A stretch of 64,000 nucleotides of DNA, taken from assembly GCA_034421095.1 (NCBI GenBank), contig DAOUKR010000007.1, positions 64,712 to 128,711 of the forward strand, in the 5' to 3' direction. The notes beneath the pieces are model-generated. The model did not search any database, was not told the origin of the DNA, and saw nothing but the letters and a program-made list of their open reading frames with translations. How positions within the stretch are numbered: position 1 is the first letter of the stretch; each line of letters starts with the position of its first letter. The position numbers and the translations under genes are program-made. The stretch is from Dehalococcoidia bacterium (GTDB taxonomy: Bacteria; Chloroflexota; Dehalococcoidia; Lucifugimonadales; JAGWBF01). Shown in pieces: positions 59-53,841 of the stretch.

Positions 59-2344
59 TTATCGGCCCGGAGAGCCGCGGAAGTTAGACCGAGGTGGTGG
101 AGGCCTCCTGTTCTGACCAGGGCCAGACCTGGGGGGGCCACCTTGTCCACCACCGGGACGGCGGTCGCTGCGTTGTCCGGGGCCGCGGGAACCGAAAGCC
201 GGTGACCCGCCACCCTGGCGAGGTCTGTCCATCGGTCTGGGTGGCCTGCCCGGAGCATCCCCCGGGTTGCCGCCGCCGAAAAGAGCCTTACGGGAGAGGT
301 TGATTCTGCCCAAATGGTCTATTTCCTGCACCACAACCGTGATTTCCTGGCTTACCTCAGGCTCTTCATCCATCTCGCCCATCTCTTCCGTTCGTACCAG
401 CCCCTCCTTGCCGGGTAGTAGTTCCACGAATGCCCCGAAGTTTGTGAGCCGCATCACTTTGCCCGTGAAAATGTCCCCGACCTCAATGTCCCTGGTCAGT
501 CCGTCTATGCGGTCTTTGGCTCTCTGCAGCATGACGTCATCATGGGAGCCGATGGTCACGGTTCCGTTGTCTTCAATCTCTATCTCCACTCCCATCTCTT
601 CCTGCAAGGACCTGATATTTCGCCCTCCGGGGCCTATGATAGCGCCTATCTTGCTCACCGGTATCATCATTCGGACCATCTTGGGGGCGTAGGGGCTAAG
701 GCGAGACCGGGGAGTGGAGATTGCTTGCTGCATCTTGTCCAATATAAACAGGCGGCCCTCTTTGGCCTGTTCAAGGGCTTGCTCCAGCACTTCATAGGTT
801 AGTCCCTTGACCTTTATGTCCATTTGAAGGGCGTTAATTCCATCTACGGTGCCGGCCACCTTGAAGTCCATGTCACCCAGATGGTCTTCCATTCCTTCGA
901 TGTCGGTCAGAATGGCATGGCGGCCATTCTCCCCCATGATTAAGCCCATAGCTACTCCCGCTACGGGCCTTTTCAGGGGCACGCCGGCATCCATGAGGGC
1001 CAGCGTGCTGCCACATACGCTTGCCATCGAGGTACTGCCATTGGAGCTGAGCACCTCTGAGACCACCCGTATCGTGTAAGGGAACTCATCTTCGCTGGGT
1101 ACGGCCGCCTCCACTGCCCTCTCGGCCAGAGCGCCGTGTCCAACCTCCCGGCGGCCTGGCGAACCGACACGCTTGACCTCTCCGGTGGAGTAGGGCGTGA
1201 AGTTGTAATGATGCATGTAACGCTTCTTGTCATCGGGTCCGAGGGTGTCCAGGGTCTGTTTCATTGCCGTGGAAGCGAGGGTAGCAATGCTCAGGACCTG
1301 GGTCTGCCCACGGGTAAACAAGCCGGAGCCGTGGGTTCTTGGTAAGACTCCCACCTCGCAGCTTATGGGGCGTATGTCGGTCAACCCTCTTCCATCGGGT
1401 CTTATACCTTTGTCCAGGATGCGGGAGCGCATCTGATCCTTGAGGATGGACTCGAAGGTAGCAGCTATTTCGTCCCTCTGATACTGGTCCTCAAGCCTCT
1501 CAATGACTTCGTCGCCCAGCTGCCTTAGGGCGTGGTCTCGTTCGGACTTACTAGGCCCGGCCTCCAGGAGCTGGGACAGTCTACCGTTAAGGACGGTATT
1601 GACCTCCCCAACCATGTCCTGGTGGGAGTTTTCAGCCGGGAAGTTCATATCCGGCTTTCCAACTGCTGCGACCAATTCGTCAATCATATCTATGACTTGG
1701 CTGTTCGCGTCCTGAGCCTGGCGTATTGCAGTAAGTATCACACTCTCCGGTACTTCCGACGACCCCGCTTCCACCATCATCACGGCGTCTTTGGTGCCGG
1801 CTACCACGACACTCAGGTCTCCTTGCTCAATCTCATCATACGTGGGGTTTGCCGTGTAGATATTGTTGTGGTGGGAAATCCTAGTGGCGCCTATGGGGCC
1901 AAGAAAGGGGATTTCCGATATGGCGAGAGCGGCCGACGCCCCTATTATGCCCAGTGTCTCCGGGGGATTCTCTTTGTCCACGGAAAGGACGGTGATGATT
2001 ATCTGGGTATCGTTGTGGAACCCCTTGGGAAACAGGGGACGCAATGGCCTATCGGTGAGTCTACCGAAGAGAATGGCTTCTTGACCTGGGCGCCCCTCCC
2101 TTCGGAAGAAGCTGCCGGGTATCCTACCGGCCGCGTAGAGTCTCTCCTCGTAGTCTACCGTAAGGGGTAGAAAGTCTATGTCAGGGCGAGCCTGTGAAGA
2201 CACACACGCCGAAACCAGGACTATCGTATCGCCGCAACGTACTGTGACCGCGGCGTTGGCCTGAGCAGCGTATTTCCCGGTTTCTATGGTAATGTTCTTG
2301 GTACCTATTTCTCGTTCAACAGAGTATTGCATGGTGAAAGCCAA
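59..2344 (-). CDS. pnp: Polyribonucleotide nucleotidyltransferase (PNPase)
   Basis: 761 aa; FFRREGRP, RTHGSGLFTRGQTQ, SNGSTSMASVC and GDMDFKVAGT motifs; KH and S1 domains; directly downstream of rpsO. Confidence 0.98.
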   Translation of the reverse strand: MAFTMQYSVEREIGTKNITIETGKYAAQANAAVTVRCGDTIVLVSACVSSQARPDIDFLPLTVDYEERLYAAGRIPGSFFRREGRPGQEAILFGRLTDRPLRPLFPKGFHNDTQIIITVLSVDKENPPETLGIIGASAALAISEIPFLGPIGATRISHHNNIYTANPTYDEIEQGDLSVVVAGTKDAVMMVEAGSSEVPESVILTAIRQAQDANSQVIDMIDELVAAVGKPDMNFPAENSHQDMVGEVNTVLNGRLSQLLEAGPSKSERDHALRQLGDEVIERLEDQYQRDEIAATFESILKDQMRSRILDKGIRPDGRGLTDIRPISCEVGVLPRTHGSGLFTRGQTQVLSIATLASTAMKQTLDTLGPDDKKRYMHHYNFTPYSTGEVKRVGSPGRREVGHGALAERAVEAAVPSEDEFPYTIRVVSEVLSSNGSTSMASVCGSTLALMDAGVPLKRPVAGVAMGLIMGENGRHAILTDIEGMEDHLGDMDFKVAGTVDGINALQMDIKVKGLTYEVLEQALEQAKEGRLFILDKMQQAISTPRSRLSPYAPKMVRMMIPVSKIGAIIGPGGRNIRSLQEEMGVEIEIEDNGTVTIGSHDDVMLQRAKDRIDGLTRDIEVGDIFTGKVMRLTNFGAFVELLPGKEGLVRTEEMGEMDEEPEVSQEITVVVQEIDHLGRINLSRKALFGGGNPGDAPGRPPRPMDRPRQGGGSPAFGSRGPGQRSDRRPGGGQGGPPRSGPGQNRRPPPPRSNFRGSPGR

Positions 2345-2373
2345 AGACCTCTCAAAATACGGAGTAAAGTCTT

Positions 2374-2411
2374 AGAAAAACAAGATAGCCCCGACAGGTC
2401 GGGGCTATCTT
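2374..2411 (-). terminator. Intrinsic terminator-like hairpin between rpsO and pnp
   Basis: Perfect 13-bp inverted repeat AAGATAGCCCCGA/TCGGGGCTATCTT (2382-2411) with 4-nt loop, followed by GTTTTTCT on the minus strand. Confidence 0.75.
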
Positions 2412-2671
2412 CGCAAGCCTAGCCTGCTTATCAGGGCGCGGTATCTCGCTACGTCTTCCCGAGTTAAGTAGTCTAGGAGGCTTCTTCGCTGCCCCACTAG
2501 TTTCAGGAGGCCGATTCGTGAGTGAACATCCTTGTGGTGGTATCTCAGGTGCTCTGTCAGCCCTCTAATCCGTTCTGTTAAAAGGGCTACCTGGACCTCC
2601 GTGGACCCCGTGTCCCCGTCGTGTTGCTGGAAGTCACTTATAATGCGAGCTTTGGTGTCTTTATCTATCAT
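2405..2671 (-). CDS. rpsO: 30S ribosomal protein S15
   Basis: 88 aa; [43 protein letters not shown]. Confidence 0.98.
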
Positions 2672-2706
2672 GCCTCCCCGGCCTTTTCCTAATACCTTCA
2701 GGTGAG

Positions 2707-2735
2707 ATTATAACACACACCCAGACCACCTGCAA
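2707..2735 (-). promoter_or_regulatory. Sigma70-type promoter for rpsO
   Basis: Minus strand TTGCAG (2735-2730), 17 bp spacer, TATAAT (2712-2707). Confidence 0.55.
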
Positions 2736-2805
2736 TTGAGAAATATGGACTATAATAAACTCACCTTGAAGTAGGCTCCGATATTGATGAGGAGGCAAAT
2801 CTCCC

Positions 2806-3780
2806 ATGACCGAGCAGAAGGTTAATCAGGAGCAAAAACAGCCAGGGATCCAGGGGTCTCCAAAGTACCTTTGGCACTCCGGGTCGCTGGTGGAGTGGGA
2901 GAAGGCAACTATCCATATCTCTATGCTTGGCTGGACTGCTATTTCTTCCGTCTTCGAAGGTATTCGTGCCTATTGGAACCCTGACCATCAGGAGCTATAT
3001 ATTTTCCGGCTTGATGCTCATCTAAAGCGGCTTTTCCAGTCCATGAAACTCATGCGTATGACCTCTCCATACTCCAGTGAGGACCTGACCCGAGCCATAA
3101 CCGATTTGCTGAGGGCCAATGAATACCGATGCGACGTATACATTCAGCCCCTTGCCTACTTCGGAGGGGGCATTCCGGGTTATCTTGCGGTGCTCGAGCA
3201 GCCTGGTGAGCTGGTCATAACGGCGCGCCCGGCCCCCTCCAATTTGAGCACGTCCAAGATAGCTCATTGCAACGTCAGTAGCTGGACGCGCATTTCCGAT
3301 AACGTGATGCCGCCAAGAGCAAAGGCCATTACCAACTACCAGAACAGTCGTTACGTCTCCACCGAGTCCCAGATTAACGGGTATGACTTTGGCATTATAT
3401 TAAATGAGTCCGGCAAGGTGTCGGAGGCAAGCTACGCGTGTATCTACATTATTCGTGATGATGTGGCTATCACCCCTCCGGTGAGCGCCGGCATCCTGGA
3501 GAGCATTACACGGGAGGTAGTCAGGGAGCTACTGGAGCAGGATATGGGGGTGTCCGTGGTAGAGCGGGACGTGGACCGGACGGAGCTATACGTCGCTGAC
3601 GAGGCCTTTATCTGCGGCACCGCAGTGGAGTTGCAAGCTATTGGAAGCGTAGACAGGTACAAAGTGGGCACTGGAGAGATGGGAAAGGTCGTTTCAAGGT
3701 TGGCAGGACTGTTTGACAACGTGGTCCGAGGTTCCGACCCCCGATATGCCGAATGGTGTACACCGGTGTATAGACACTGA
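2806..3780 (+). CDS. PLP-dependent class IV aminotransferase (branched-chain amino acid aminotransferase-like)
   Basis: VFEGIRAY, HLKRL, AKAITNY (PLP lysine), ILESITR, EAFICGTA; some IlvE specificity motifs diverge, so ilvE symbol withheld. Confidence 0.85.
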   Translation: MTEQKVNQEQKQPGIQGSPKYLWHSGSLVEWEKATIHISMLGWTAISSVFEGIRAYWNPDHQELYIFRLDAHLKRLFQSMKLMRMTSPYSSEDLTRAITDLLRANEYRCDVYIQPLAYFGGGIPGYLAVLEQPGELVITARPAPSNLSTSKIAHCNVSSWTRISDNVMPPRAKAITNYQNSRYVSTESQINGYDFGIILNESGKVSEASYACIYIIRDDVAITPPVSAGILESITREVVRELLEQDMGVSVVERDVDRTELYVADEAFICGTAVELQAIGSVDRYKVGTGEMGKVVSRLAGLFDNVVRGSDPRYAEWCTPVYRH

Positions 3781-3856
3781 GACCCTCAGAAACAGACTAC
3801 GTCCCGGCTCAGGTTAGAAGCCTAGGGCCGTTAGTAGACTTCTACCGCAGCAGTTC

Positions 3857-4984
3857 TCACCCTCCGGCAGTAAGTGCCTGCTCCAAATCTGATGTAAGAT
3901 CGTCCGCATTTTCCAACCCTACGGAAACCCTCAGCAGGTCGTCGGGAGTGCCGCTCTCCGGTCCCTCAATTGATGCTCGGTGCTCTATGAGGCTTTCGTA
4001 GCTACCCAAACTAGTGGCCCTGACAAAGAGCGAGGTGCCGGCGGCAACCCTGAATGCCGCTTCTCTTCCTCCTTGTACCCTGAAAGAGAGCATACCGCCA
4101 AACAGGTCCATTTGCCGGCGAGCGACGTCATGGCCGGGATGACCCTTCAACCCTGGATAGTAGACCTCCAGGACTTTGGGATGACCGTTAAGGAATGTAG
4201 CAACCTTGTCAGCGTTTTCCGAGTGGGCCCGCATACGGTAAGGCAGAGTACGGATACCCCTGAGAACCAGCCAGCAATCAAAGGGAGACGGGACTGCTCC
4301 GCCTTGCTGCTGGATCCTGCTAATCTCTTCGAATAGTCCGTCCTGTCGGGCAGACACTACCATCCCTCCGGTTACGTCCCCGTGGCCTCCCAGGTACTTG
4401 GTGGTTGAATGGACTACCAAGTCGGCCCCAAGGTCGATGCACCTCTGGAGCGCCGGACTGGCCCAGGTATTGTCGCAAAGACAGGTAATTCCCCGCTGGC
4501 GGGCGACCTCTGCCATCGCTGCAACGTCAGTGATCTTCAGCAAAGGGTTCGAGGGAGTCTCAATTATCAAGAGCCTTGTGGAGGGAATAATTGCTTGCCG
4601 GACCGCATCAATGTCCGTCATGTCCACGAATGAGGTGTCCAGATTCCACCGGGCCATCACCTCTCTGAGTAGACGAGCGGTACCGTGATAGATGTCCCGA
4701 GGAGCGATGACATGGTCTCCGGGGGATAGGGACTGGAAGACGCTCATGATGGCGGCCATCCCAGAACCGAATGCTGCTGCGGCAGCTCCTCCCTCAAGGT
4801 CTCGGACACATTCTTCCAAGAGTTTTCGCGAAGGGTTGCCGGAGCGCCCGTACACAAACCCATGTGGGTACGACCCGTCTGCCTCGCGCTCAAAAGTGGT
4901 GGACATGTGTATCGGTGGAGCGATAGCGCCTGTAGTGGGATCGACAGAGCGCCCGCTGTGAACGGCGATAGTCTCGATATTCAT
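3857..4984 (-). CDS. Cystathionine gamma-synthase/beta-lyase family (Cys/Met metabolism PLP enzyme)
   Basis: YGRSGNP, FGSGMAAI, IETPSNP, DNTWASP, HSTTKYLGGHGD, LRVSVGLE. Confidence 0.92.
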   Translation of the reverse strand: MNIETIAVHSGRSVDPTTGAIAPPIHMSTTFEREADGSYPHGFVYGRSGNPSRKLLEECVRDLEGGAAAAAFGSGMAAIMSVFQSLSPGDHVIAPRDIYHGTARLLREVMARWNLDTSFVDMTDIDAVRQAIIPSTRLLIIETPSNPLLKITDVAAMAEVARQRGITCLCDNTWASPALQRCIDLGADLVVHSTTKYLGGHGDVTGGMVVSARQDGLFEEISRIQQQGGAVPSPFDCWLVLRGIRTLPYRMRAHSENADKVATFLNGHPKVLEVYYPGLKGHPGHDVARRQMDLFGGMLSFRVQGGREAAFRVAAGTSLFVRATSLGSYESLIEHRASIEGPESGTPDDLLRVSVGLENADDLTSDLEQALTAGG

Positions 4985-8129: not shown

Positions 8130-8957
8130 CTATCGTTGATACAGTCCCACACGCCGCAGGGTATAAGCGTCGGACGCCATAATTTCGGGTATTCGTGGCG
8201 AGAGACTGTGGAAATCATCGTTCACGGCATCCAACAAACGACCACTCAACGTTCCTGAGGCGTCGCTTGCCAGAAACACCGCCAATTCTACCGCCCGCTC
8301 CATGGATGCACCCTGGCCACTTGTCACGCGCACCCCGGTTTCGTATAGCTCGGTGTCCCCTATATTTGCGGCTGCATCCCGGGTCTCTTCCCACATCCTG
8401 GTGTGAATAGAGCCGGGGCTCATGGCGTTGACCCGTACGTTCGTCCTCTTCAACTCTTCCGCAAGGGTCTCTGTGAGACTGACCAGCCCCGCCTTGGATA
8501 CGCTGTATGCCGACATGTTGCGTCCCCCCACACCCGACATATTGACAATCTTGCCGCTGTTCCGGGATAGCATTGTTGGAAGCACCGCCCGGCAGCAGAG
8601 GTAAACGCCAAAGACGTTTACCTGAATTGTGTTGACCCAGCGGGACGTGTCGGTATCCTGGATCGCTGCCACAGGTCCAATGACTCCCGCATTGGCTACC
8701 AGAATGTCTATAGTGGAATACTGGTCCAGGGTTTGCCTTACAATGTCGTCTACCTGTGCAGGGTCGGTCACGTCCGCAGTGATTATGCAGGTCATAGCGC
8801 CCAATGATTCAGCCTGCCGGGCTGTCTCCTCCAGCTCGTTCTGACTGCGGGCTGATAGCGCTAGTCGTGCTCCCTCTCTCGCGTAACCCAGCGCGATGGC
8901 CCGTCCGATCCCCCGGCCAGCTCCGGTTATCAGTGCCACACGGTCCTTTAGCTGCAT
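8130..8957 (-). CDS. Short-chain dehydrogenase/reductase (SDR)
   Basis: TGAGRGIG, ANAG, YSVSK catalytic YxxxK, NAMSPG. Confidence 0.93.
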   Translation of the reverse strand: MQLKDRVALITGAGRGIGRAIALGYAREGARLALSARSQNELEETARQAESLGAMTCIITADVTDPAQVDDIVRQTLDQYSTIDILVANAGVIGPVAAIQDTDTSRWVNTIQVNVFGVYLCCRAVLPTMLSRNSGKIVNMSGVGGRNMSAYSVSKAGLVSLTETLAEELKRTNVRVNAMSPGSIHTRMWEETRDAAANIGDTELYETGVRVTSGQGASMERAVELAVFLASDASGTLSGRLLDAVNDDFHSLSPRIPEIMASDAYTLRRVGLYQR

Positions 8958-9128
8958 CGCATAAGCTCTCCCGTTCCAGAGTTCTGGTCCTAGCCGCTAC
9001 CTTAGGGTTCCTTTACATTATACGCATTATATATATCGATAATAATGGCGTACATATCCCCCGAAGAAGTCATTAACTATGTCCTGCATTTCAGGAAACC
9101 TTTGGAAATGGTTTTGAAGAAAAACCTA

Positions 9129-9157
9129 TTGACAACCCACCGGTAATCTGATATGTT
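9129..9157 (+). promoter_or_regulatory. Sigma70-type promoter upstream of the ABC operon leader
   Basis: TTGACA (9129-9134), 17 bp spacer, TATGTT (9152-9157). Confidence 0.65.
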
Positions 9158-9164
9158 ATCTGAC

Positions 9165-9392
9165 ACCCCAAGTAACCCAGTTCCAATGGCCATACCGACG
9201 GCAAAGCTGTCGCCGGCGTCGTCAGCCCTAGCGCTGCGAGGAGTCTAAAGGAGGCCATAGCTTTAGGAGATGAACCTGAACGGTGCTAAGATACCTCGAC
9301 ACAACAGTCGGGGGGAGGCAGCCAGGAGGTTGAGACCCGGGAGCTATAGCCTTTAATAAGGCGGTGGCCAGCGGAGCAAAGCTACTTGGGGT
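9165..9392 (+). ncRNA. Candidate structured 5' leader/cis-regulatory RNA, unclassified
   Basis: Perfect 10-bp closing helix 9165-9174/9383-9392 with several nested helices; starts at the predicted TSS; about 325 nt from TSS to start codon. Confidence 0.45.
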
Positions 9393-9490
9393 TTAGGTTT
9401 GCCCCAGGGGTTGCGGTGAGGTGCGCTATCCCAAGTGGTCCACAAGAGGAAGTGGATACACCCAAGAGAAAGGACTGTGGAGGTACAAAC

Positions 9491-11434
9491 ATGTCAAAAG
9501 GTTGGTTACTTAGACACAGGTTCCTGGCATTCGTGCCGCTCATGCTGGTTCTGATTGTGGCTGCAGCATGCGGCGGTGACGACGCAACCCCGACAAGTGC
9601 GCCACAACCGACGGCCACGACAGAGGGCATGATGGAGGAAGATCCCACGGCCACGGTGGCAGTAGGCGCTCCAACAGCCACGCCGGTCCCGGAGCCAACG
9701 CGGGCTGAGGACACACCCACACCCGTCGCCACCGCGACACCGGTGCCCATACTGGAAACCCCCTATGACCACATGATGCAACCCTGGTTCAAAGAGGGGA
9801 AGCAAGGCGGCGGCATCATACCCATGACCCATGGGGCCTGCCACGTTGACTACTGGGACCCCCACCAGTCCACTATCGCTTGTGGATCGGCGGGATTCTC
9901 CCCGGTGTTCAGCCAGATCATGATGTGGAACCACACGAACCCTTCCGAGCTGGTAGGTGACCTGGCCCAGCGTTGGGAGTGGTCGGACGATGGCATGAAG
10001 CTCACCATCACGATACATGAGGCCATGTGGTCTGACGGTGAGGCCCTTAATGCCGACGACGTGGTATTCAGCTTGGACCGGATGGTAGACCCGGTGCCGC
10101 CCAAGCCAAGGGCGCAGAGCATCAACCCGTACTACGAGAATTCAGAGGTGATAGACGACAGGACGCTGGTGATAAACACCAAGGTCCCCAACCCGCCCGG
10201 GCTTCTCCAGTACCTGGCCCTCGACTACATGAAGATAATGCCCAAGCACATACCCGAAAACGAGGGCTTTGATCTCACCAACGACGAGGGCAAGAGAATG
10301 TTGGGCGAGTTCAACCTCATACCTGAGAATATTGTGGCCTCCGGTCCCTTCCTGGTGGACGAGTACATTCGTGGAGAGAGCTATCGTCTAATTAGGAACC
10401 CCAACTATTTCAAGGAGGGGCTGCCTTACCTGGATGGGTTCAATAGCATCAAGATGGCTGACAGGACCGCGATGATAGCTGCCTTCGATACCGAAGCGAT
10501 TTATATGTGCAACCAGAGCGGCGCCTGCGGTCTGGATGCGAAAGCGGCCATAGAATTGGAAGACCGGTGGGCGGGCAAAGTGAACATCCACTGGCTGCCA
10601 CCCTCCGCCTTCGACCACCTGTTGTTGAACTTCACCAGGCCCCCCTTCGACAACGAAGACCTGAGAAAAGCGGTGTACATCGGCCAGGACCGCCTGTGGA
10701 TGCTCCAGAAAGAGGCGGCAGGCAGGGGCAGGCTGGGCACACCCTTCTATCCTGAGACCTGGATGACTCCTGACAATTCCGTGGTAGCCACGTGGCCCGG
10801 CTTCCGGTACGTTGACAATGATGGCAACCCGGTGCTGGACTACTACCAGGGACAAGAAGTGGGAGTGGACATCCACAAGGACCCCCGTGACATAGAGATG
10901 GCCCAGGAGTTGATGAAGAAGCACGGATACAACGAGGATAATCTCCTGAAGATAGAGTTGTCCTGCTCCGCGTCAACTTCAGGCAGGGAGTCCTGTTCGC
11001 TGGACAAGCAGATGCTGGAGAGCATATACATAGACGTTGAGATTGTGGCACAGGAGAGCAGCGCCAGGTTCGCCGACATCCGAGCCGGAAAGTACGACAT
11101 GATGGAGAACACTCACGGGGCGAACCTGATTTCGGCTGACGACGTGTTCATCGCCGTCTACCTCCCCAAGGGAGCGAAGAACTTCCAGGACTGGGACCAT
11201 CCTGAGATACAGAGACTCTTCCAGGCCCAGTTCCAGGAGCCGGACATTGCGAAGCGCCAGGAGCTAGTCTGGGAGGCTGGTGACCTCATCCGGTCGGGTA
11301 TCTCCCACTGGGCCGCCACGGCCTGGCAGGAGAGGTGGATTCAGCCGGTGAGCACCAAGATAAAGAACTTCTTCCCGGCCCAGACGGTGCAGCTGAGCAT
11401 GCAGCACGAGGCCATCTGGTTCGATGATTCCTAA
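9491..11434 (+). CDS. ABC transporter substrate-binding lipoprotein, family 5 (DppA/OppA-like)
   Basis: Lipobox AAAC, P/T-rich linker, GDLAQRWEWSDDG, ASGPF, RNPNYFKEGLPYLDG, PPFDNEDLRKA; ATG 9491 after GGAGG. Confidence 0.92.
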   Translation: MSKGWLLRHRFLAFVPLMLVLIVAAACGGDDATPTSAPQPTATTEGMMEEDPTATVAVGAPTATPVPEPTRAEDTPTPVATATPVPILETPYDHMMQPWFKEGKQGGGIIPMTHGACHVDYWDPHQSTIACGSAGFSPVFSQIMMWNHTNPSELVGDLAQRWEWSDDGMKLTITIHEAMWSDGEALNADDVVFSLDRMVDPVPPKPRAQSINPYYENSEVIDDRTLVINTKVPNPPGLLQYLALDYMKIMPKHIPENEGFDLTNDEGKRMLGEFNLIPENIVASGPFLVDEYIRGESYRLIRNPNYFKEGLPYLDGFNSIKMADRTAMIAAFDTEAIYMCNQSGACGLDAKAAIELEDRWAGKVNIHWLPPSAFDHLLLNFTRPPFDNEDLRKAVYIGQDRLWMLQKEAAGRGRLGTPFYPETWMTPDNSVVATWPGFRYVDNDGNPVLDYYQGQEVGVDIHKDPRDIEMAQELMKKHGYNEDNLLKIELSCSASTSGRESCSLDKQMLESIYIDVEIVAQESSARFADIRAGKYDMMENTHGANLISADDVFIAVYLPKGAKNFQDWDHPEIQRLFQAQFQEPDIAKRQELVWEAGDLIRSGISHWAATAWQERWIQPVSTKIKNFFPAQTVQLSMQHEAIWFDDS

Positions 11435-11644: not shown

Positions 11645-11719
11645 GTCATACTGGCGAAAGCCAGTATCCAGACTCTCCAAGTCGGCAGGTCCTTAGACCC
11701 TCGCTACGCTCGAGGTGAC
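11645..11719. repeat. Hybrid REP-like element
   Basis: GTCATACTGGCGAAAGCCAGTATCCAG (matches 53774) plus AGACCCTCGCTACGCTCGAGGTGAC (reverse complement matches 15420). Confidence 0.7.
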
Positions 11720-11854: not shown

Positions 11855-12808
11855 ATGGGCGTGTACGCGATAAAACGGGTCCTCCTTTTCATCCCCACCT
11901 TGCTCTTGATGTCCATCCTGATATTTGCCCTTCTGCGCATTCTCCCCGGAGATCCGGCGGAGGTTATGATGGGCGAGGAAGGGGCCAGGTTCACCGAGGC
12001 GGACCTTGAGCGGATACGGGCGGAAATCGGCACCGACAAGCCCCTGTATGCCCAATACGGGGTGTGGATTGCGAATATATTCCAGGGCGATTTCGGCAAG
12101 TCTTTCTACTATAGGGTCCCTGTCTCCGACGACCTCAAGCTCAGATTCCCCACAACCATGGAGTTGGCTATCCTGGCCAGCATTATTGGTGTCATAGTAG
12201 CCGTGCCTCTGGGGGTCTTGTCCGCCGTAAAGCAGGATACCTGGATAGACCATGTGGTCAAGGTATTTAGTATTGGCGGCATAGCCATGCCCAACTTCTT
12301 TGTGGGTGTACTCATAGTCTTGGGTTTAGCTGTGATATTTGGATGGTCACCGCCTATACTTTATTCCCATATATGGGACGACCCGCTGACCAATTTGCAG
12401 CAGATGATATTCCCCGCCCTCGCCCTTGGCTATGGTCACATGGCCTTCATAGCCCGAGTGACCCGGTCCTCCATGCTGGAGGTGATGAGGGAAGACTACA
12501 TCAGGACGGCCCGGTCCAAGGGACTTGCGGAGTACCTCGTCATCTTCAGACACGCGGTCAAGAATGCCTTTTTGCCCGTAGTTACCGTATCCGGCTACCA
12601 GTTCGCGCGTACCATCGGTGGTACGGTGGTTATCGAGACCATATTCCTGGTGCCTGGAATAGGGAACTTCCTTGTAATCAGCGTACTTCACAGAGACTTC
12701 AACGCTATTCAAGCAACCTTCCTCATAATAGCTGTATTCGTCGTGGTCGTAAACTTGCTTGTTGATCTGCTGTATGGTTGGCTCAACCCAAGAGTCCGCT
12801 ACGCGTAA
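11855..12808 (+). CDS. ABC transporter permease (DppB/OppB-like)
   Basis: LPGDPA, GDFGKS, RSSMLEVMREDYIRTARSKGL (EAA loop), RHAVKNA. Confidence 0.93.
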   Translation: MGVYAIKRVLLFIPTLLLMSILIFALLRILPGDPAEVMMGEEGARFTEADLERIRAEIGTDKPLYAQYGVWIANIFQGDFGKSFYYRVPVSDDLKLRFPTTMELAILASIIGVIVAVPLGVLSAVKQDTWIDHVVKVFSIGGIAMPNFFVGVLIVLGLAVIFGWSPPILYSHIWDDPLTNLQQMIFPALALGYGHMAFIARVTRSSMLEVMREDYIRTARSKGLAEYLVIFRHAVKNAFLPVVTVSGYQFARTIGGTVVIETIFLVPGIGNFLVISVLHRDFNAIQATFLIIAVFVVVVNLLVDLLYGWLNPRVRYA

Positions 12809-12834
12809 GTGAAGATTTAACTCTGAGAGGGGCC

Positions 12835-13755
12835 ATGATTTCGGTAAGTAGGACGTCTTCAGTCACCACAGAAATACTCAGGGGTGTCCAGGATAAGTCT
12901 TATGTGGCGTTGAGAGAGGCCCTGCGTTTTTGCAGGCGGAAGCCCATGGGAGCCATTGGCCTCGGAATACTCCTTCTACTTATCCTGATAGCGATATTCG
13001 CTCCGGTCATAGCACCCCATGACCCCGAGGAAATCTTTGGCCTGGATGCCGATTATTCCGCTCCAACCGGTAGTCTTCTCCTGGGTGGAGATAACGTCGG
13101 CCGTGATGTTCTGTCCAGAATCTTCTACGGTGCTCGAATATCCCTGTTCGTTGGCCTCATTAGCATATCAATTGGAGTTACATTGGGGTCGTTGCTGGGC
13201 CTCATAAGTGCCTATTTCGGGGGCACTGTTGACATGGTCATCCAGCGCCTTGTGGACATCTTCATGGCAATTCCCGGAATCATCCTCGCCCTGGTGATTA
13301 TGGCCTCCCTTGGGTCATCCTCCATTACTAACGTCATCATTGCCCTTGTGTTCGTCCTGACGCCGGCGTCCATTCGTACTATACGCTCTCAGGCGCTGGC
13401 GGTGAGAGAGATGGACTATGTCCTTGCAGCCAGAGCTGTGGGCGCAACCGACTGGCGTATCATCTTCCGGCACATGGTCCCTAACTGTTTCGCCATCTTT
13501 ATGATAGTGTTCACCATCTACCTGGGCTATGCGATTCTGGTAGAGGCCTCCCTTAGCTTTCTCGGTGTGGGTCTGCCTCCCAACGTTGCCAGCTGGGGCA
13601 GTATGTTGAACGATACGAAGGAAGCCTACATATTTGGGACTTGGTGGTTGCCCTTCTTCCCGGGCATCGCCATATCTCTGGCCGTGTTTGGAGTGAACCT
13701 CTTTGGCGACGCCATGCGGGACGTTCTCGACCCACGTCTGAGAGGGGCCAACTAG
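12835..13755 (+). CDS. ABC transporter permease (DppC/OppC-like)
   Basis: LGGDNVGRDVLSRI, DYVLAARAVGA, EASLSFLGVG, GDAMRDVLDPRLR. Confidence 0.93.
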   Translation: MISVSRTSSVTTEILRGVQDKSYVALREALRFCRRKPMGAIGLGILLLLILIAIFAPVIAPHDPEEIFGLDADYSAPTGSLLLGGDNVGRDVLSRIFYGARISLFVGLISISIGVTLGSLLGLISAYFGGTVDMVIQRLVDIFMAIPGIILALVIMASLGSSSITNVIIALVFVLTPASIRTIRSQALAVREMDYVLAARAVGATDWRIIFRHMVPNCFAIFMIVFTIYLGYAILVEASLSFLGVGLPPNVASWGSMLNDTKEAYIFGTWWLPFFPGIAISLAVFGVNLFGDAMRDVLDPRLRGAN

Positions 13756-13888
13756 AGAAGAAGGCTCGGCAGCTGCCCGCACTGACCCTCACTCAAGTGG
13801 GGGGATATGGGCAGCTACTCAGGCATGGTTCCTTCCTCTACGATCGTGCTTGGTGAGTATTGCAATCTGACCTCTTTCCTGACAAAAT

Positions 13889-14770
13889 ATGGGCATGAGA
13901 ATTGGAGCCTTTGAAATAGATGAGCCGTTGCCAGAGTTGAGGGAACCTCATGCTCTGGTAACGTTGCGACCCTGGGTGGATGTTGGCCGGGTTGGCCGCC
14001 AAACTCTAATCCGTCTCGAAAGACACCTTGACGCTCGGGAAATCGGCAAACTGGCTCGCCCCGGCAACTTCTACGACCTCACCCGCTATCGGCCCAGGAT
14101 TATGAACGTAGGTGCTGAGCGTCGTGTGACCATCCCCAACACCACTGTCCTCTATGCCAAGCGTGAGCAACCCCCGGACCTTTTGTTCCTTCATATTCTG
14201 GAACCCCACGCATTCGGCGAGGACTATTGCGACTCCGTCCTGGAGCTTCTCAAGCATTTTCAGGTCAAACAGTACACCCAGGTAGGAGGCGTGTCCGATG
14301 CGGTGCCCCATACACGGCCCCTCCTGGTGACCGGAATCGTCCCAGAAAGGGAAAGTAAGCTGTACGGGATACAGCGCAGCAACTATCAGGGGCCTACCAG
14401 CATTACCTATCTCATTCCTCAGGAAGCGGCCAGCCTGGGGGTGGTGACCATGAACTTCCTCGTTCGGTTGCCCCACTACGCCCAACTAGATGAGGATTAC
14501 GCCGGGGTTGCCAAACTACTGGAAATTCTGTGTGACATGTACGATTTGCCATCTGACTTGATAGATAGCGGGCGTGGCCAGCAGCAATACCAGCAGATAG
14601 ATGCCGCCGTGGCCCGTAATCCTCAGGCCAAAAGCCTGGTCCAGCAACTTGAGACGGGCTACGATGCCGTGACCAGTCAGTCCAATGAGGAAAGCGCGGT
14701 GTCCTTCTCGCCCGAGGTTGAGCAGTTCCTGGAAGAGATGGACAAGCGCTTGGGAGAGGAGCAAGGCTAG
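13889..14770 (+). CDS. PAC2 family (proteasome assembly chaperone-like) protein
   Basis: PWVDVG, FYDLTRYRP, EPH, VGGVSDAVPHTRP, YQGPTSI, RLPHY. Confidence 0.85.
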   Translation: MGMRIGAFEIDEPLPELREPHALVTLRPWVDVGRVGRQTLIRLERHLDAREIGKLARPGNFYDLTRYRPRIMNVGAERRVTIPNTTVLYAKREQPPDLLFLHILEPHAFGEDYCDSVLELLKHFQVKQYTQVGGVSDAVPHTRPLLVTGIVPERESKLYGIQRSNYQGPTSITYLIPQEAASLGVVTMNFLVRLPHYAQLDEDYAGVAKLLEILCDMYDLPSDLIDSGRGQQQYQQIDAAVARNPQAKSLVQQLETGYDAVTSQSNEESAVSFSPEVEQFLEEMDKRLGEEQG

Positions 14771-16881: not shown

Positions 16882-17940
16882 CTATCGAAAATGGGGCATC
16901 ACCTCGCTGGCGAATAGCTTCATGGCATTCATTACCCGGGAATGTTCTATCAGCCCACCCTGGTTGAAAAAGCAGATAATCTCGGACGGCTGGAGGTCCT
17001 CCTGGAGCGCTTTAATCTTCTCAACGCACTGGGAAGGGTCCCCGCAGATGGCTATGTCGTTGCGCCAGTCGTCTAGGGTCATCCCCTTGAACCTGGCCTG
17101 AGTCTCCTTGACCCGCGGATTGGCTGCGATGGCCCGCTGCATGGCCGGGGTGTCGTAGCTGGATAAGAGGGCGTTGAGAAAATTGTTCACGCTTGCCTCT
17201 GGGACCACCCTGGCCTCTTCGGCGTCTCCGGCAACGAAAACAGGCATGTTCACTGACAGTTCCATAGTGCTGACATGATGCCCGCTTGCTGCCAGCGTCT
17301 GCCGGTACACTTTGACCCCGTCTCGAAGGGCGGGCATCGGCACCACGAACGGGGAGATAAACATATTATGTCCCAGATTTCCCACCATCTCGAATGTGTC
17401 GGCACTGTTCGAGGCGATGCGTATGGGAGGGTGGGGCTTCTGGACGGGTTTGGGCACTATCCGAAGGTCTTGGGCACTGTGGTACTTGCCCACGAAGGAG
17501 AACTCCTCGTGGGTCCAGGCTTTTATGACAAAGTCGAGATACTCCACGAACCGCTCACGGTTCTCCTGAATGGGAATATTGAATCCCTGGAAGTGGGCTG
17601 GCATGGCACCCCGACCCACCCCGAACTCCGCCCGTCCATTGGAAAGCACGTCCAGGGTGGCTATGTCCTCGGCAATTCGGACGGGATTATGAAGGGGCAG
17701 CAGGTTCACTGCCACACCCAACCGTATCTTCTTGGTGCGTTGGGCGGCTGCTGCGGCCACCATCAAGGGGGAGGGCGTCGTGGAAAACCTGGAGTCGAAA
17801 TGAAGCTCTGCGAACCACACATTGTCGAAGCCAAGCTCATCGCCCAGGTCAATTTGCTCCAGGGTATCCTGATACCTTTGCACCGGTGATTGCCAGTCGG
17901 CGCACGGTATCATGTAAAACAGTCCGAATTTCATCTCCAT
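16882..17940 (-). CDS. Luciferase-like (LLM class) flavin-dependent oxidoreductase
   Basis: GFDNVWFAELH, RLGVAVNLLPLHNPVRIAEDIATLDVLSNGRAEFGVGRG, PKPVQKPHPP, FASEVMPHF. Confidence 0.93.
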   Translation of the reverse strand: MEMKFGLFYMIPCADWQSPVQRYQDTLEQIDLGDELGFDNVWFAELHFDSRFSTTPSPLMVAAAAAQRTKKIRLGVAVNLLPLHNPVRIAEDIATLDVLSNGRAEFGVGRGAMPAHFQGFNIPIQENRERFVEYLDFVIKAWTHEEFSFVGKYHSAQDLRIVPKPVQKPHPPIRIASNSADTFEMVGNLGHNMFISPFVVPMPALRDGVKVYRQTLAASGHHVSTMELSVNMPVFVAGDAEEARVVPEASVNNFLNALLSSYDTPAMQRAIAANPRVKETQARFKGMTLDDWRNDIAICGDPSQCVEKIKALQEDLQPSEIICFFNQGGLIEHSRVMNAMKLFASEVMPHFR

Positions 17941-17950
17941 GACTCCTGGG

Positions 17951-19585
17951 CTAGAGGGGTATGTTCCCGTGCTTCTTTGGAGGCAGGGAATCTCTCTTGT
18001 TCTGAAGCATATCCAGGGCCCGGATAACCTGTGGGCGTGTCTCCCGGGGGTCTATCACGTTGTCCAGATATCCCTGGCTGGCTGCCACGTAAGGATTGGC
18101 AAACTTGTCCCGGAACTCCTCAATCAGGCTGTTTCGTCGCTCTTCGGCGTTCTCCGCCTTGGAGAGCTCATCGCGAAAGACAATGTTTACGGCCCCATCC
18201 GGTCCCATCACGGCAATCTCGGCAGAGGGCCATGCCAGATTGATGTCACCTCTGAGGTGCTTACTGCTCATAACGAGGTAGGCCCCGCCGTAAGCCTTGC
18301 GAGTCATCACGCTTATCTTGGGCACGGTGGCTTCGGCGTAGGCGTACAGCAGCTTAGACCCGTGCCTGATGATTCCTCCGTACTCCTGTTCGGTGCCTGG
18401 CATGAAACCGGGCACATCTACAAAGGTTATGATAGGTATGTTGAAGCAATCACAGAAGCGCACGAAACGAGCGGCTTTCACCGATGCGTTAATGTCCAGG
18501 ACTCCCGCAAGATAGGCCGGCTGGTTGCCCACTATGCCTACGGCTTTCCCGGCAAGCCGGGCAAAGCCGACGACGATGTTGGGGGCGAAGTCCTGGTGGA
18601 CCTCCATGAAATCGCCGCCATCCACGACCCTTATCACTATCTCGCGGATGTCATAAGCCCTGTTGGGTTCCTCGGGCACGATAGACAACAGGCTATCATC
18701 GGTACGGCCCGCCTCATCAAAACCCTGCACTGTGGGAGGGTCATCCATATTGTTGGACGGGAGAAAACCCAGGAGCCTGCGTACCTGGGCCATGCATTCT
18801 TCCTCCGAATCCGATATGAAGTGGGCCACACCACTTCGGCTGCCGTGAGCAAGTGCTCCCCCCAGACTCTCGTGGGTCACGTCCTCCCCTGTCACTGCCC
18901 GTATGACGTCGGGGCCGGTGATGTACATCTGGCTGATGCCCTGAACCATAAAGATGAAGTCGGTGATTGCGGGAGAGTAAACCGCCCCGCCTGCGGAGGG
19001 ACCCATAATGACCGAAAGCTGAGGGATTACCCCAGACGCCAGGGTGTTTCTCAGGAAGATTTCGCCATAAGCGCCCAGGCTAAGCACCCCCTCTTGAATG
19101 CGTGCGCCCCCGGAATCGTTGAGACCTACGACTGGACAACCTGTCTTCATCGCCAGGTCCATCACCTTGGAAATCTTTTGACCCACAACCTCAGATACGG
19201 AACCGCCCAGGACAGTGAAGTCTTGGGAGAACACAAATATCTGCCGTCCGTCAACCTTTCCGTAGCCCGTTACCACGGCATCGGATAATATCTTTCTGTC
19301 TGCCATGCCGAAGTCCGTGGCCCGGTGGGTGACGAAGGGATCTATCTCCTCGAAAGTACCTTCGTCAAGCAGCAAGCTTATCCTCGTTCTGGCAGAGAGC
19401 TTTCCTTTGTCGTGCTGTTGCTGGATACGTCTCTCACCGCCGCCCAGCCGGGACTGTTTCCTCATTTCTTCCAGCTGCTCCAGTTTCGCATTCGTAGCCG
19501 GTTCGGCGTCCACGGCTACTAGCTCCTGGGACTGGGCATCATCATGGCTCTCCGGCTTCGCGTCCATATCCCGTTCGACGGTCAT
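17951..19585 (-). CDS. pccB: Acyl-CoA (propionyl/methylmalonyl-CoA-type) carboxylase carboxyltransferase beta subunit
   Basis: QQHDKGKLSARTR, DSGGARIQEG, GPSAGGAVYSPA, DVPGFMPG, KKHGNIPL. Confidence 0.88.
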   Translation of the reverse strand: MTVERDMDAKPESHDDAQSQELVAVDAEPATNAKLEQLEEMRKQSRLGGGERRIQQQHDKGKLSARTRISLLLDEGTFEEIDPFVTHRATDFGMADRKILSDAVVTGYGKVDGRQIFVFSQDFTVLGGSVSEVVGQKISKVMDLAMKTGCPVVGLNDSGGARIQEGVLSLGAYGEIFLRNTLASGVIPQLSVIMGPSAGGAVYSPAITDFIFMVQGISQMYITGPDVIRAVTGEDVTHESLGGALAHGSRSGVAHFISDSEEECMAQVRRLLGFLPSNNMDDPPTVQGFDEAGRTDDSLLSIVPEEPNRAYDIREIVIRVVDGGDFMEVHQDFAPNIVVGFARLAGKAVGIVGNQPAYLAGVLDINASVKAARFVRFCDCFNIPIITFVDVPGFMPGTEQEYGGIIRHGSKLLYAYAEATVPKISVMTRKAYGGAYLVMSSKHLRGDINLAWPSAEIAVMGPDGAVNIVFRDELSKAENAEERRNSLIEEFRDKFANPYVAASQGYLDNVIDPRETRPQVIRALDMLQNKRDSLPPKKHGNIPL

Positions 19586-53773: not shown

Positions 53774-53841
53774 GTCATTCTGGCGAAAGCCAGAATCCAG
53801 AGTTGAAGTGGGGATGGAATCCGGCTCAAGGCCGGAATGAC
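53774..53841. repeat. REP-like paired palindrome
   Basis: GTCATTCTGGCGAAAGCCAGAATCCAG ... TGGAATCCGGCTCAAGGCCGGAATGAC. Confidence 0.75.

Follow-up and report, generated by a model that had tools for sequence, protein, structure and literature searches.

We analysed a 64,000-nt stretch of DNA (hereafter the window) from a Dehalococcoidia bacterium of the Chloroflexota (assembly GCA_034421095.1, contig DAOUKR010000007.1, positions 64,712 to 128,711), for which the nearest genomes are Dehalococcoidia metagenome-assembled genomes. Positions are those of the window, and features lie on its plus strand unless stated otherwise. An SBP_bac_5 gene at 9491-11434 (+) encodes a family-5 extracellular solute-binding lipoprotein of 647 aa (Pfam E 8.5e-55), with the ATG at 9491 beginning a lipoprotein-type signal peptide. 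Downstream lie two permease genes (11855-12808 and 12778-13755, both Pfam BPD_transp_1), and a short-chain dehydrogenase gene (8130-8957) is divergent from this transporter operon. A leader of 326 nt extends from the predicted +1 to the start codon of the binding-protein gene, and it is this leader that the original prediction put forward as a candidate riboswitch or structured leader RNA. Its promoter is conserved, its sequence is constrained above the neutral level, its fold is conserved, hairpins within it covary, it is present as a single copy, and it matches no known family. We therefore hold, with moderate confidence, that this is a real, conserved, structured leader of an unclassified kind, which would act in cis on the translation and stability of the binding-protein mRNA.

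A sigma-70-type promoter lies at 9129-9157 (+), composed of a -35 box TTGACA (9129-9134), a 17-nt spacer and a -10 box TATGTT (9152-9157), preceded by a TG at 9149-9150. With 10/12 matches and the TG ahead of the -10 box, it was the sole promoter-like site in a scan of 8800-9700, as expected from the near-consensus promoter first described here; the transcription start stays inferred from the position of this promoter, which places it at about 9164-9165. TTGACA, the TG and TAYNNT are retained in 10/10 full-length orthologous loci, and within the -10 box positions 1, 2 and 6 are invariant across the orthologs while positions 3-5 vary. A working promoter would be expected to show such invariance of the -35 box, the TG and these three -10 positions.

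The comparison included ten full-length leaders (those of the window, L005, L006, L012, L014, L010, L009, L016, L002 and L008) and two partial ones (L011 and L001), among which promoter, leader and fold are conserved. The dehydrogenase gene, spacer, promoter, leader and binding-protein gene follow in the same order at all of the leader loci fetched. Relatives of the binding protein fall into four close clusters at 83-99% identity, after which identity drops straight to ~41%. Two more remote relatives, at 30-40% identity (L007 and L003), are preceded by unrelated, shorter leaders of ~120-130 nt with TTGACA-type promoters. The leader was seen solely before one orthologous gene of one narrow Dehalococcoidia clade, with two loci carrying it in a genome scan, and in the loci searched it did not recur at other genes.

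Within this clade, the leader is conserved beyond what its surroundings would predict. In an alignment of nine full-length sequences, invariant columns make up 51% of the leader; in the adjacent gene the figure is 34.5% for fourfold-degenerate sites, 44% for third codon positions and 77-86% for the first two codon positions. The spacer 5' of the -35 box is 33% invariant, and the identity of the window to distant orthologs is 70-72% in the leader and 46-49% in the spacer. This conservation is unevenly spread: near-invariance is confined to the strands of the closing helix P1, to the block 9262-9300 and to the last 60 nt, the segments 9225-9252 and 9302-9330 are variable, and the 3' segment (9380-9490) is conserved above the 5' domain. 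The orthologs differ by indels of 1, 2 and 5 nt in the leader, which are not multiples of 3, hence a coding function is excluded. A leader-peptide frame at 9186-9248 (20 codons) is lost in the L002 group, an N-terminal extension through the frame open from TTG 9386 is broken by the same 1-, 2- and 5-nt indels, and nothing in the window corresponds to an 84-aa gene call in L008; all three were rejected.

The 5' domain (9165-9392, 228 nt) folds with a minimum free energy (MFE) of -102.7 kcal/mol (z -5.27), which none of 200 dinucleotide shuffles equalled; the whole leader reaches -133.8 kcal/mol (z -3.35), equalled by 1/100 shuffles, and the L009 ortholog folds with z -5.20. The consensus fold of the 5' domain, calculated with RNAalifold, surpassed that of column-shuffled alignments both when the alignment was made by MAFFT from sequence only (z -4.0) and when it was built in a structure-aware manner with pairing-probability profiles (z -4.6), with 0/200 shuffles as good. 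A shared architecture, consisting of P1, P1b, P2, P3, P4 with its inner helices and P6, Q2 and Q3, is present in the MFE structure of 6/9 orthologs. Of the two strands, the plus strand gives the better fold, and G.U makes up 11% of paired cells; on both counts an RNA from the minus strand was rejected.

Every sequence feature on which the original prediction was built was found where it had been placed. P1 opens at the predicted 5' end of the RNA, where ACCCCAAGUA (9165-9174) pairs perfectly with UACUUGGGGU (9383-9392); in DNA letters ACCCCAAGTA is the perfect complement of TACTTGGGGT, giving a helix of 10 bp from the predicted +1 onwards. A perfect helix of this length, anchored in the first 3 nt, arose in 10/20000 shuffles. 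Inside it, UGGCCA (9187-9192) may pair with its counterpart at 9365-9370 as the tentative helix P1b, the TGGCCA pairing of the earlier description. P2 (9195-9216) is a hairpin of CCGACGGCA and UGUCGCCGG, to which the hairpin first noted, CGACGGC-AAA-GCTGTCG at 9196-9212, is an alternative register, and P3 (9217-9241) is an imperfect stem with the loop CCUAGC. In the consensus fold, the remainder of the domain is a long, imperfect arm, P4 (9243-9362). Its outer pairings are GUCU (9243-9246) with AGGC (9359-9362) and GGCCAUAGCUU (9253-9263) with GAGCUAUAGCC (9341-9351), the second of which contains the pairing originally given as GGCCATAGCT (9253-9262) with AGCTATAGCC (9342-9351), with its one mismatch, C.A. 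The inner helices join CCUG (9275-9278) to CAGG (9323-9326) and GGUGC (9282-9286) to GCAGCC (9318-9323), and the hairpin P6 (9292-9313) pairs CCUCGAC (9294-9300) with GUCGGGG (9307-9313). The predicted pairings TTAGG/CCTGA and GGT-TGAG-ACC are likewise in the sequence. The block 9262-9300 within the P4 arm is the most conserved part of the 5' domain.

Downstream of P1 the leader continues as a 3' segment of ~100 nt, close to invariant, which runs through two hairpins into the ribosome-binding region. Q2 (9407-9432) pairs GGGGU with AUCCC, with an inner GCG/CGC, and shows one-sided changes only. Q3 (9435-9461) pairs GUGGUCCAC with GUGGAU-AC around a purine-rich loop that contains GGA in all orthologs but L014, and forms with a pairing probability of 0.8-0.99 in 8-9/9 orthologs. 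The almost invariant ribosome-binding region (9467-9493) consists of AGAAAGGA (9467-9474), GGAGGU (9479-9484) and the ATG (9491-9493), with GGAGG (9479-9483), the Shine-Dalgarno (SD) sequence, ending 7 nt ahead of the ATG. Both blocks are presumably complementary to the usual 3' tail of 16S rRNA. With AGAAAGGA and GGAGGU (9467-9484) both invariant, the region has the appearance of a split, extended SD, and the upstream block might serve as a ribosome standby site.

Compensatory changes are found in the local hairpins. In P2 and P3 together (9195-9241), 6/19 pairs show double-sided changes, and 15/500 shuffles reached as high a covariation score. P2 accounts for three of these double-sided changes among orthologs, with 93.5% of cells paired, and it formed in 7-8/9 single-sequence folds; P3 accounts for three more, such as C-G to U-A in L009 and L016, and CAGC/GCUG to UAGC/GCUA in L005. 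Where both columns of a predicted pair vary, 4/5 are compensatory, compared with 7.3% of all variable column pairs (Fisher p 1.4e-4). The stem of P6 is kept with loops of 3-6 nt; L012 carries one compensatory change in it, C-G to U-A, and other orthologs have U.G/U-A changes. Q3 has one U-A to C-G compensatory change (L014), together with A-U to G.U in L012 and L001. Hence covariation supports the local hairpins only, clearly in P2 and P3, and through a single compensatory change in each of P6 and Q3.

The long-range helices are a different matter. All four substitutions in the P1 partner strand keep the pairing, being transitions opposite G or U, which are uninformative; in the outer stem of P4, inspection by hand found G-C to A-U and G.U changes in L009, with the C.A mismatch repaired to C-G. 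As P1, P1b and P4 lack double-sided covariation, the case for a multi-branch domain closed by P1 is one of thermodynamics and of conserved sequence. Covariation in homologous leaders, suggested earlier as a check for this locus, favours the local hairpins, and not P1, P1b or P4. Of the two descriptions initially offered, a structured leader RNA agrees with the conserved promoter, leader and fold, whereas the term riboswitch does not have the backing of double-sided changes in the long-range helices or of more than a single locus.

How such a leader would act can be sketched from its alternative pairings. Bases 9385-9391 of the P1 3' strand can instead pair with CCCCAGG (9402-9408), and CCCC (9402-9405) can in turn pair with the GG-GG of GGAGG around a bulged A, making it a candidate for occluding the SD. 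A further candidate is buried by P6, where the anti-SD-like UACCUCGAC (9292-9300) could alternatively pair with GUGGAGGUA (9477-9485), as proposed by RNAalifold; both of these strands are essentially invariant. No terminator-like site was found in 8800-9700, and a terminator-based attenuator was rejected for the want of one between promoter and start codon; hence any control would act on translation. We infer that the leader would work in cis and post-transcriptionally, with the folding state of the 5' domain (P1, or the alternative hairpin 9385-9391/9402-9408) determining whether the C-rich segments are available for pairing with the SD. The segment responsible would be CCCC or, less likely, UACCUC (9292-9297), and SD occlusion would set the amount of binding protein translated. 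The base-paired 5' end would also protect the mRNA from 5'-end-dependent decay. In modelling, forcing P1 led CCCC to pair with the SD at ~0.64 probability in the window and L009, and this CCCC-SD pairing was predicted for about half the orthologs. For group A (six sequences), constructs of the platform only gave an SD openness of 0.33-0.60 if the P1 3' strand was available, and of 0.20-0.25 if it was blocked. A signal could plausibly pass from P1 to the SD by way of the alternative hairpin. The mutually exclusive helix first noted (TGGGG 9387-9391 with CCCCA 9402-9406) is in the sequence; the platform proposed from it gave no consistent change in modelled SD accessibility from ortholog to ortholog.

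Several results weigh against a structured leader working in this way. Firstly, the modelled switch is fragile: in group B sequences the P1 3' strand had no effect on SD openness, adding 20 nt of coding sequence altered the result, and full-length ensembles gave no consistent difference in SD accessibility between P1-on and P1-off states. Secondly, the fold is not uniformly stable, as L002 has a z of only -2.2 with P1 absent from its best fold, and P1 is missing from the MFE structures of L002, L008 and L010, where 2-7 kcal/mol is needed to force it. For the 3' segment, the consensus fold lies weakly above shuffles (z -1.4 to -2.2). Thirdly, covariation over the whole structure in the full MAFFT alignment was no better than in shuffles. 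The P4 arm in a model-fitted alignment has 95.7% of cells paired and 0 double-sided pair changes; P1 is essentially invariant, with mostly wobble-compatible changes and one mismatch in L002, and so uninformative either way; and P1b, which shows no compensatory change, pairs in the L002 group only after a slip in register and has a C.A mismatch in L016. Fourthly, much of the 5' domain evolves near the synonymous rate, and with about four or five lineages sampled, conservation is partly recent common ancestry.

The last of these points could be taken further, such that the leader would have no function at the RNA level, its conservation reflecting common ancestry or DNA-level signals and its fold being incidental to a G+C-rich sequence. 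The closeness of the orthologs, with binding proteins 84-99% identical, the roughly synonymous rate of change over much of the 5' domain and the non-significant whole-structure covariation are all consistent with this. We nevertheless consider it very improbable, as it leaves unaccounted for the conservation of the leader above both the adjoining spacer and fourfold-degenerate sites, the excess of fold stability and of the consensus fold over shuffles, and the compensatory changes in P2, P3, P6 and Q3.

If the leader does function as an RNA, it is not one that has been catalogued. A search of the whole 64-kb window against Rfam 15, with all its curated riboswitch classes, at the gathering score gave no match; on 8950-9560 at E <=10 there were three hits, to eukaryotic families, with E >1 and at chance level; and five ortholog loci gave no match at E <=1. 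These searches agree with the original statement that the leader fits none of the familiar riboswitch consensus motifs, and a literature search found no description of a riboswitch or structured leader of this kind in Dehalococcoidia or Chloroflexi. A thiamine pyrophosphate (TPP) riboswitch was considered from the motifs GAACCUGA and UGAGACCC, and rejected: UGAGA varies among orthologs (UUGAGA, UUAAGA, GCGAGA), the order of the motifs is reversed relative to the TPP riboswitch, in which an invariant UGAGA of J3/2 stands 5' of the pyrophosphate-sensor helix with ACCUGA, and RF00059 is not matched.

The leader also appears to be unique within the sequences searched. No second copy was found in the window by repeat finder, BLAST or covariance model, and a covariance model of the P4 arm (R1) applied to the window and 15 loci matched only the orthologs. 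Hence a dispersed repeat, of the repetitive extragenic palindromic (REP) or miniature inverted-repeat transposable element type, was rejected on the lack of a further copy in the window or loci scanned; this was an alternative that the original prediction had itself raised. Two exact-pattern scans of Joint Genome Institute (JGI) metagenome contigs were empty, a weak result, since they also missed the L011 contig, which has both patterns; the empty scans are therefore not evidence of absence. This contig, Ga0416809_053626, holds both scan patterns in its bases 200-260.

The combination of a large domain, an uptake gene and no known family raises the question of whether the leader is a new, lineage-restricted class of metabolite-sensing riboswitch, with the 228-nt domain as an aptamer for the substrate of the importer or a downstream metabolite. 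We regard this as unlikely. The ligand would, tentatively, be either the importer substrate or a product of the neighbouring oxidoreductases. In an equally doubtful mechanism, ligand binding would stabilise P1 and block the hairpin 9385-9391/9402-9408, leaving CCCC to occlude the SD and turn translation off. In size and architecture the domain resembles large aptamers, with a 5' closing helix, several stems and the highly conserved block 9262-9300; it belongs to the 5' untranslated region (UTR) of a gene for an uptake system; two mutually exclusive pairings involve the P1 3' strand; the SD of group A sequences is less open when that strand is unavailable; no known family is matched; and there is no regulator gene beside the operon among the neighbours scanned. 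Conversely, the leader was found at a single orthologous locus of a narrow clade, those of L007 and L003 being different and shorter, the helices of the aptamer junction are without compensatory support, the modelled switching is inconsistent, and there is no terminator. The presumed platform is moreover conserved above the presumed aptamer, the reverse of the usual riboswitch pattern, in which the aptamer is usually the conserved part.

Among known systems, the leader can be compared with translational riboswitches that precede binding-protein genes of ATP-binding cassette importers, such as the cobalamin and TPP riboswitches (RF00174 and RF00059). Like the leader, these lie in the 5' UTR of a gene for uptake and have a P1 helix that closes a large domain of several stems, with an alternative partner for the P1 3' strand, a downstream segment complementary to the SD and no terminator. 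The leader differs from both in having no Rfam match at E <=10, one orthologous locus and junction helices without covariation; from the TPP riboswitch in that its TPP-like GAACCUGA and UGAGA are in the wrong order; and from the cobalamin riboswitch in that no B12 box was read in it.

A further point against ligand sensing by the RNA lies upstream of the promoter. An inverted repeat, ATTTC-N12-GAAAT, was read at 9088-9109 (+), ~20 bp 5' of the -35 box, and is exact or has one mismatch in most orthologs despite the divergence of the flanking spacer, with L012 lacking it. It is a candidate transcription-factor operator or activator site common to the divergent dehydrogenase and transporter promoters. 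Its conservation suggests that a transcription factor also acts at the promoter, as a possible regulatory input at the DNA level, and hence that such control would already be in place.

Another explanation, which we likewise think unlikely, is that the leader senses nothing, and is instead a constitutive structural element in which mRNA stability comes from the paired 5' end and the compact fold, and high translation from the strong SD. It might thereby supply the excess of binding protein over permeases that ATP-binding cassette importers need. Such an element is consistent with P1 beginning at the predicted +1, the very stable fold, and the ribosome-binding region being the most conserved part of the leader. 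Leaders of ~120-130 nt with TTGACA-type promoters also precede other binding-protein genes in related genomes, and the 420-nt spacer with a hairpin repeat after the gene fits differential stability within the operon. We doubt this explanation because a simple 5' hairpin would do, such that the 228-nt multi-stem domain with its conserved internal blocks is left unexplained, as are the conserved C-rich complements of the SD.

The Escherichia coli ompA and Bacillus subtilis aprE leaders, which contain 5' UTR stabiliser structures, show the extent of this resemblance. They share with the present leader a 5' end paired from +1 and a stable structure before a strong ribosome-binding site of a highly expressed envelope protein; however, they are short hairpins, whereas the leader is a 228-nt multi-stem domain with a conserved linker of ~100 nt. 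RNA thermometers (ROSE, fourU) have in common with it conserved pyrimidine-rich complements of the SD (UACCUC and CCCC) in the same leader. In contrast to the leader, they are short local hairpins that contain the SD, whereas its candidate partners lie 75-190 nt 5' of the SD, pairing is predicted in about half of the orthologs, and no Rfam thermometer is matched. The leaders of the peptide-transporter binding-protein mRNAs oppA and dppA are controlled by the small RNA GcvB, and CsrA-type sites are GGA loops. With these the leader shares the 5' UTR of a family-5 binding protein, a C/A-rich 5' end and GGA in both the Q3 loop and the SD, although the loop GGA is missing from L014 and the resemblance is by analogy only.

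The structured leader of unclassified kind, which remains our preferred reading, would be of interest mainly for the organisms in which it is found. Such Dehalococcoidia are uncultured and possess many binding-protein-dependent importers of unknown substrate, and to our knowledge almost nothing is known of how these importers are regulated in Dehalococcoidia of this type. A conserved, unclassified leader of >300 nt, with a promoter mapped by homology and a fold open to testing, is hence a concrete entry to post-transcriptional control in this group. Were ligand binding to prove true, it would also point to the substrate of the transporter; the solved relatives of the binding protein are all distant and have varied ligands. 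As it stands, the leader is an orphan structured 5' UTR and a candidate for RNA-motif catalogues, which would be no surprise to a specialist.

The surrounding genes have some features of their own. The permeases are followed by a PAC2-family gene (13889-14770) in the window and in orthologs L005 and L006. The transporter cluster (11855-14770) joins the binding protein to two permeases without an adjacent ATPase gene, and has the PAC2-family gene instead; a Pfam scan of other large frames in the window revealed no second binding protein. In L009, a DDE transposase gene (4198-4944) stands in place of the permease genes, with the promoter, leader and binding-protein gene intact. L013 encodes an 893-aa fusion of a trypsin-like protease domain and a binding-protein domain (1501-4182) in the same 90% protein cluster, at another locus, by a PAC2 gene and a BrnT/BrnA toxin-antitoxin pair, where a copy of the leader is absent.

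A hairpin repeat of 25 nt, GTCATNCTGGCGAAAGCCAGNATCC, whose loop is GAAA, occurs twice in the window (11645-11669 and 53774-53798) and in L006 (3958-3971). One copy lies within the spacer, unusually long at 420 nt, that separates the binding-protein gene from the first permease gene, and the two window copies have a compensatory difference in the stem (A..T versus T..A); the hairpin may be a REP-like mRNA-stabilising element. Further along the window, at 17939-19585, two long frames overlap on opposite strands, 17939-19288 (+) and 17951-19585 (-). The minus-strand frame encodes a carboxyl transferase (Pfam E 3e-195), and the plus-strand frame is probably spurious.

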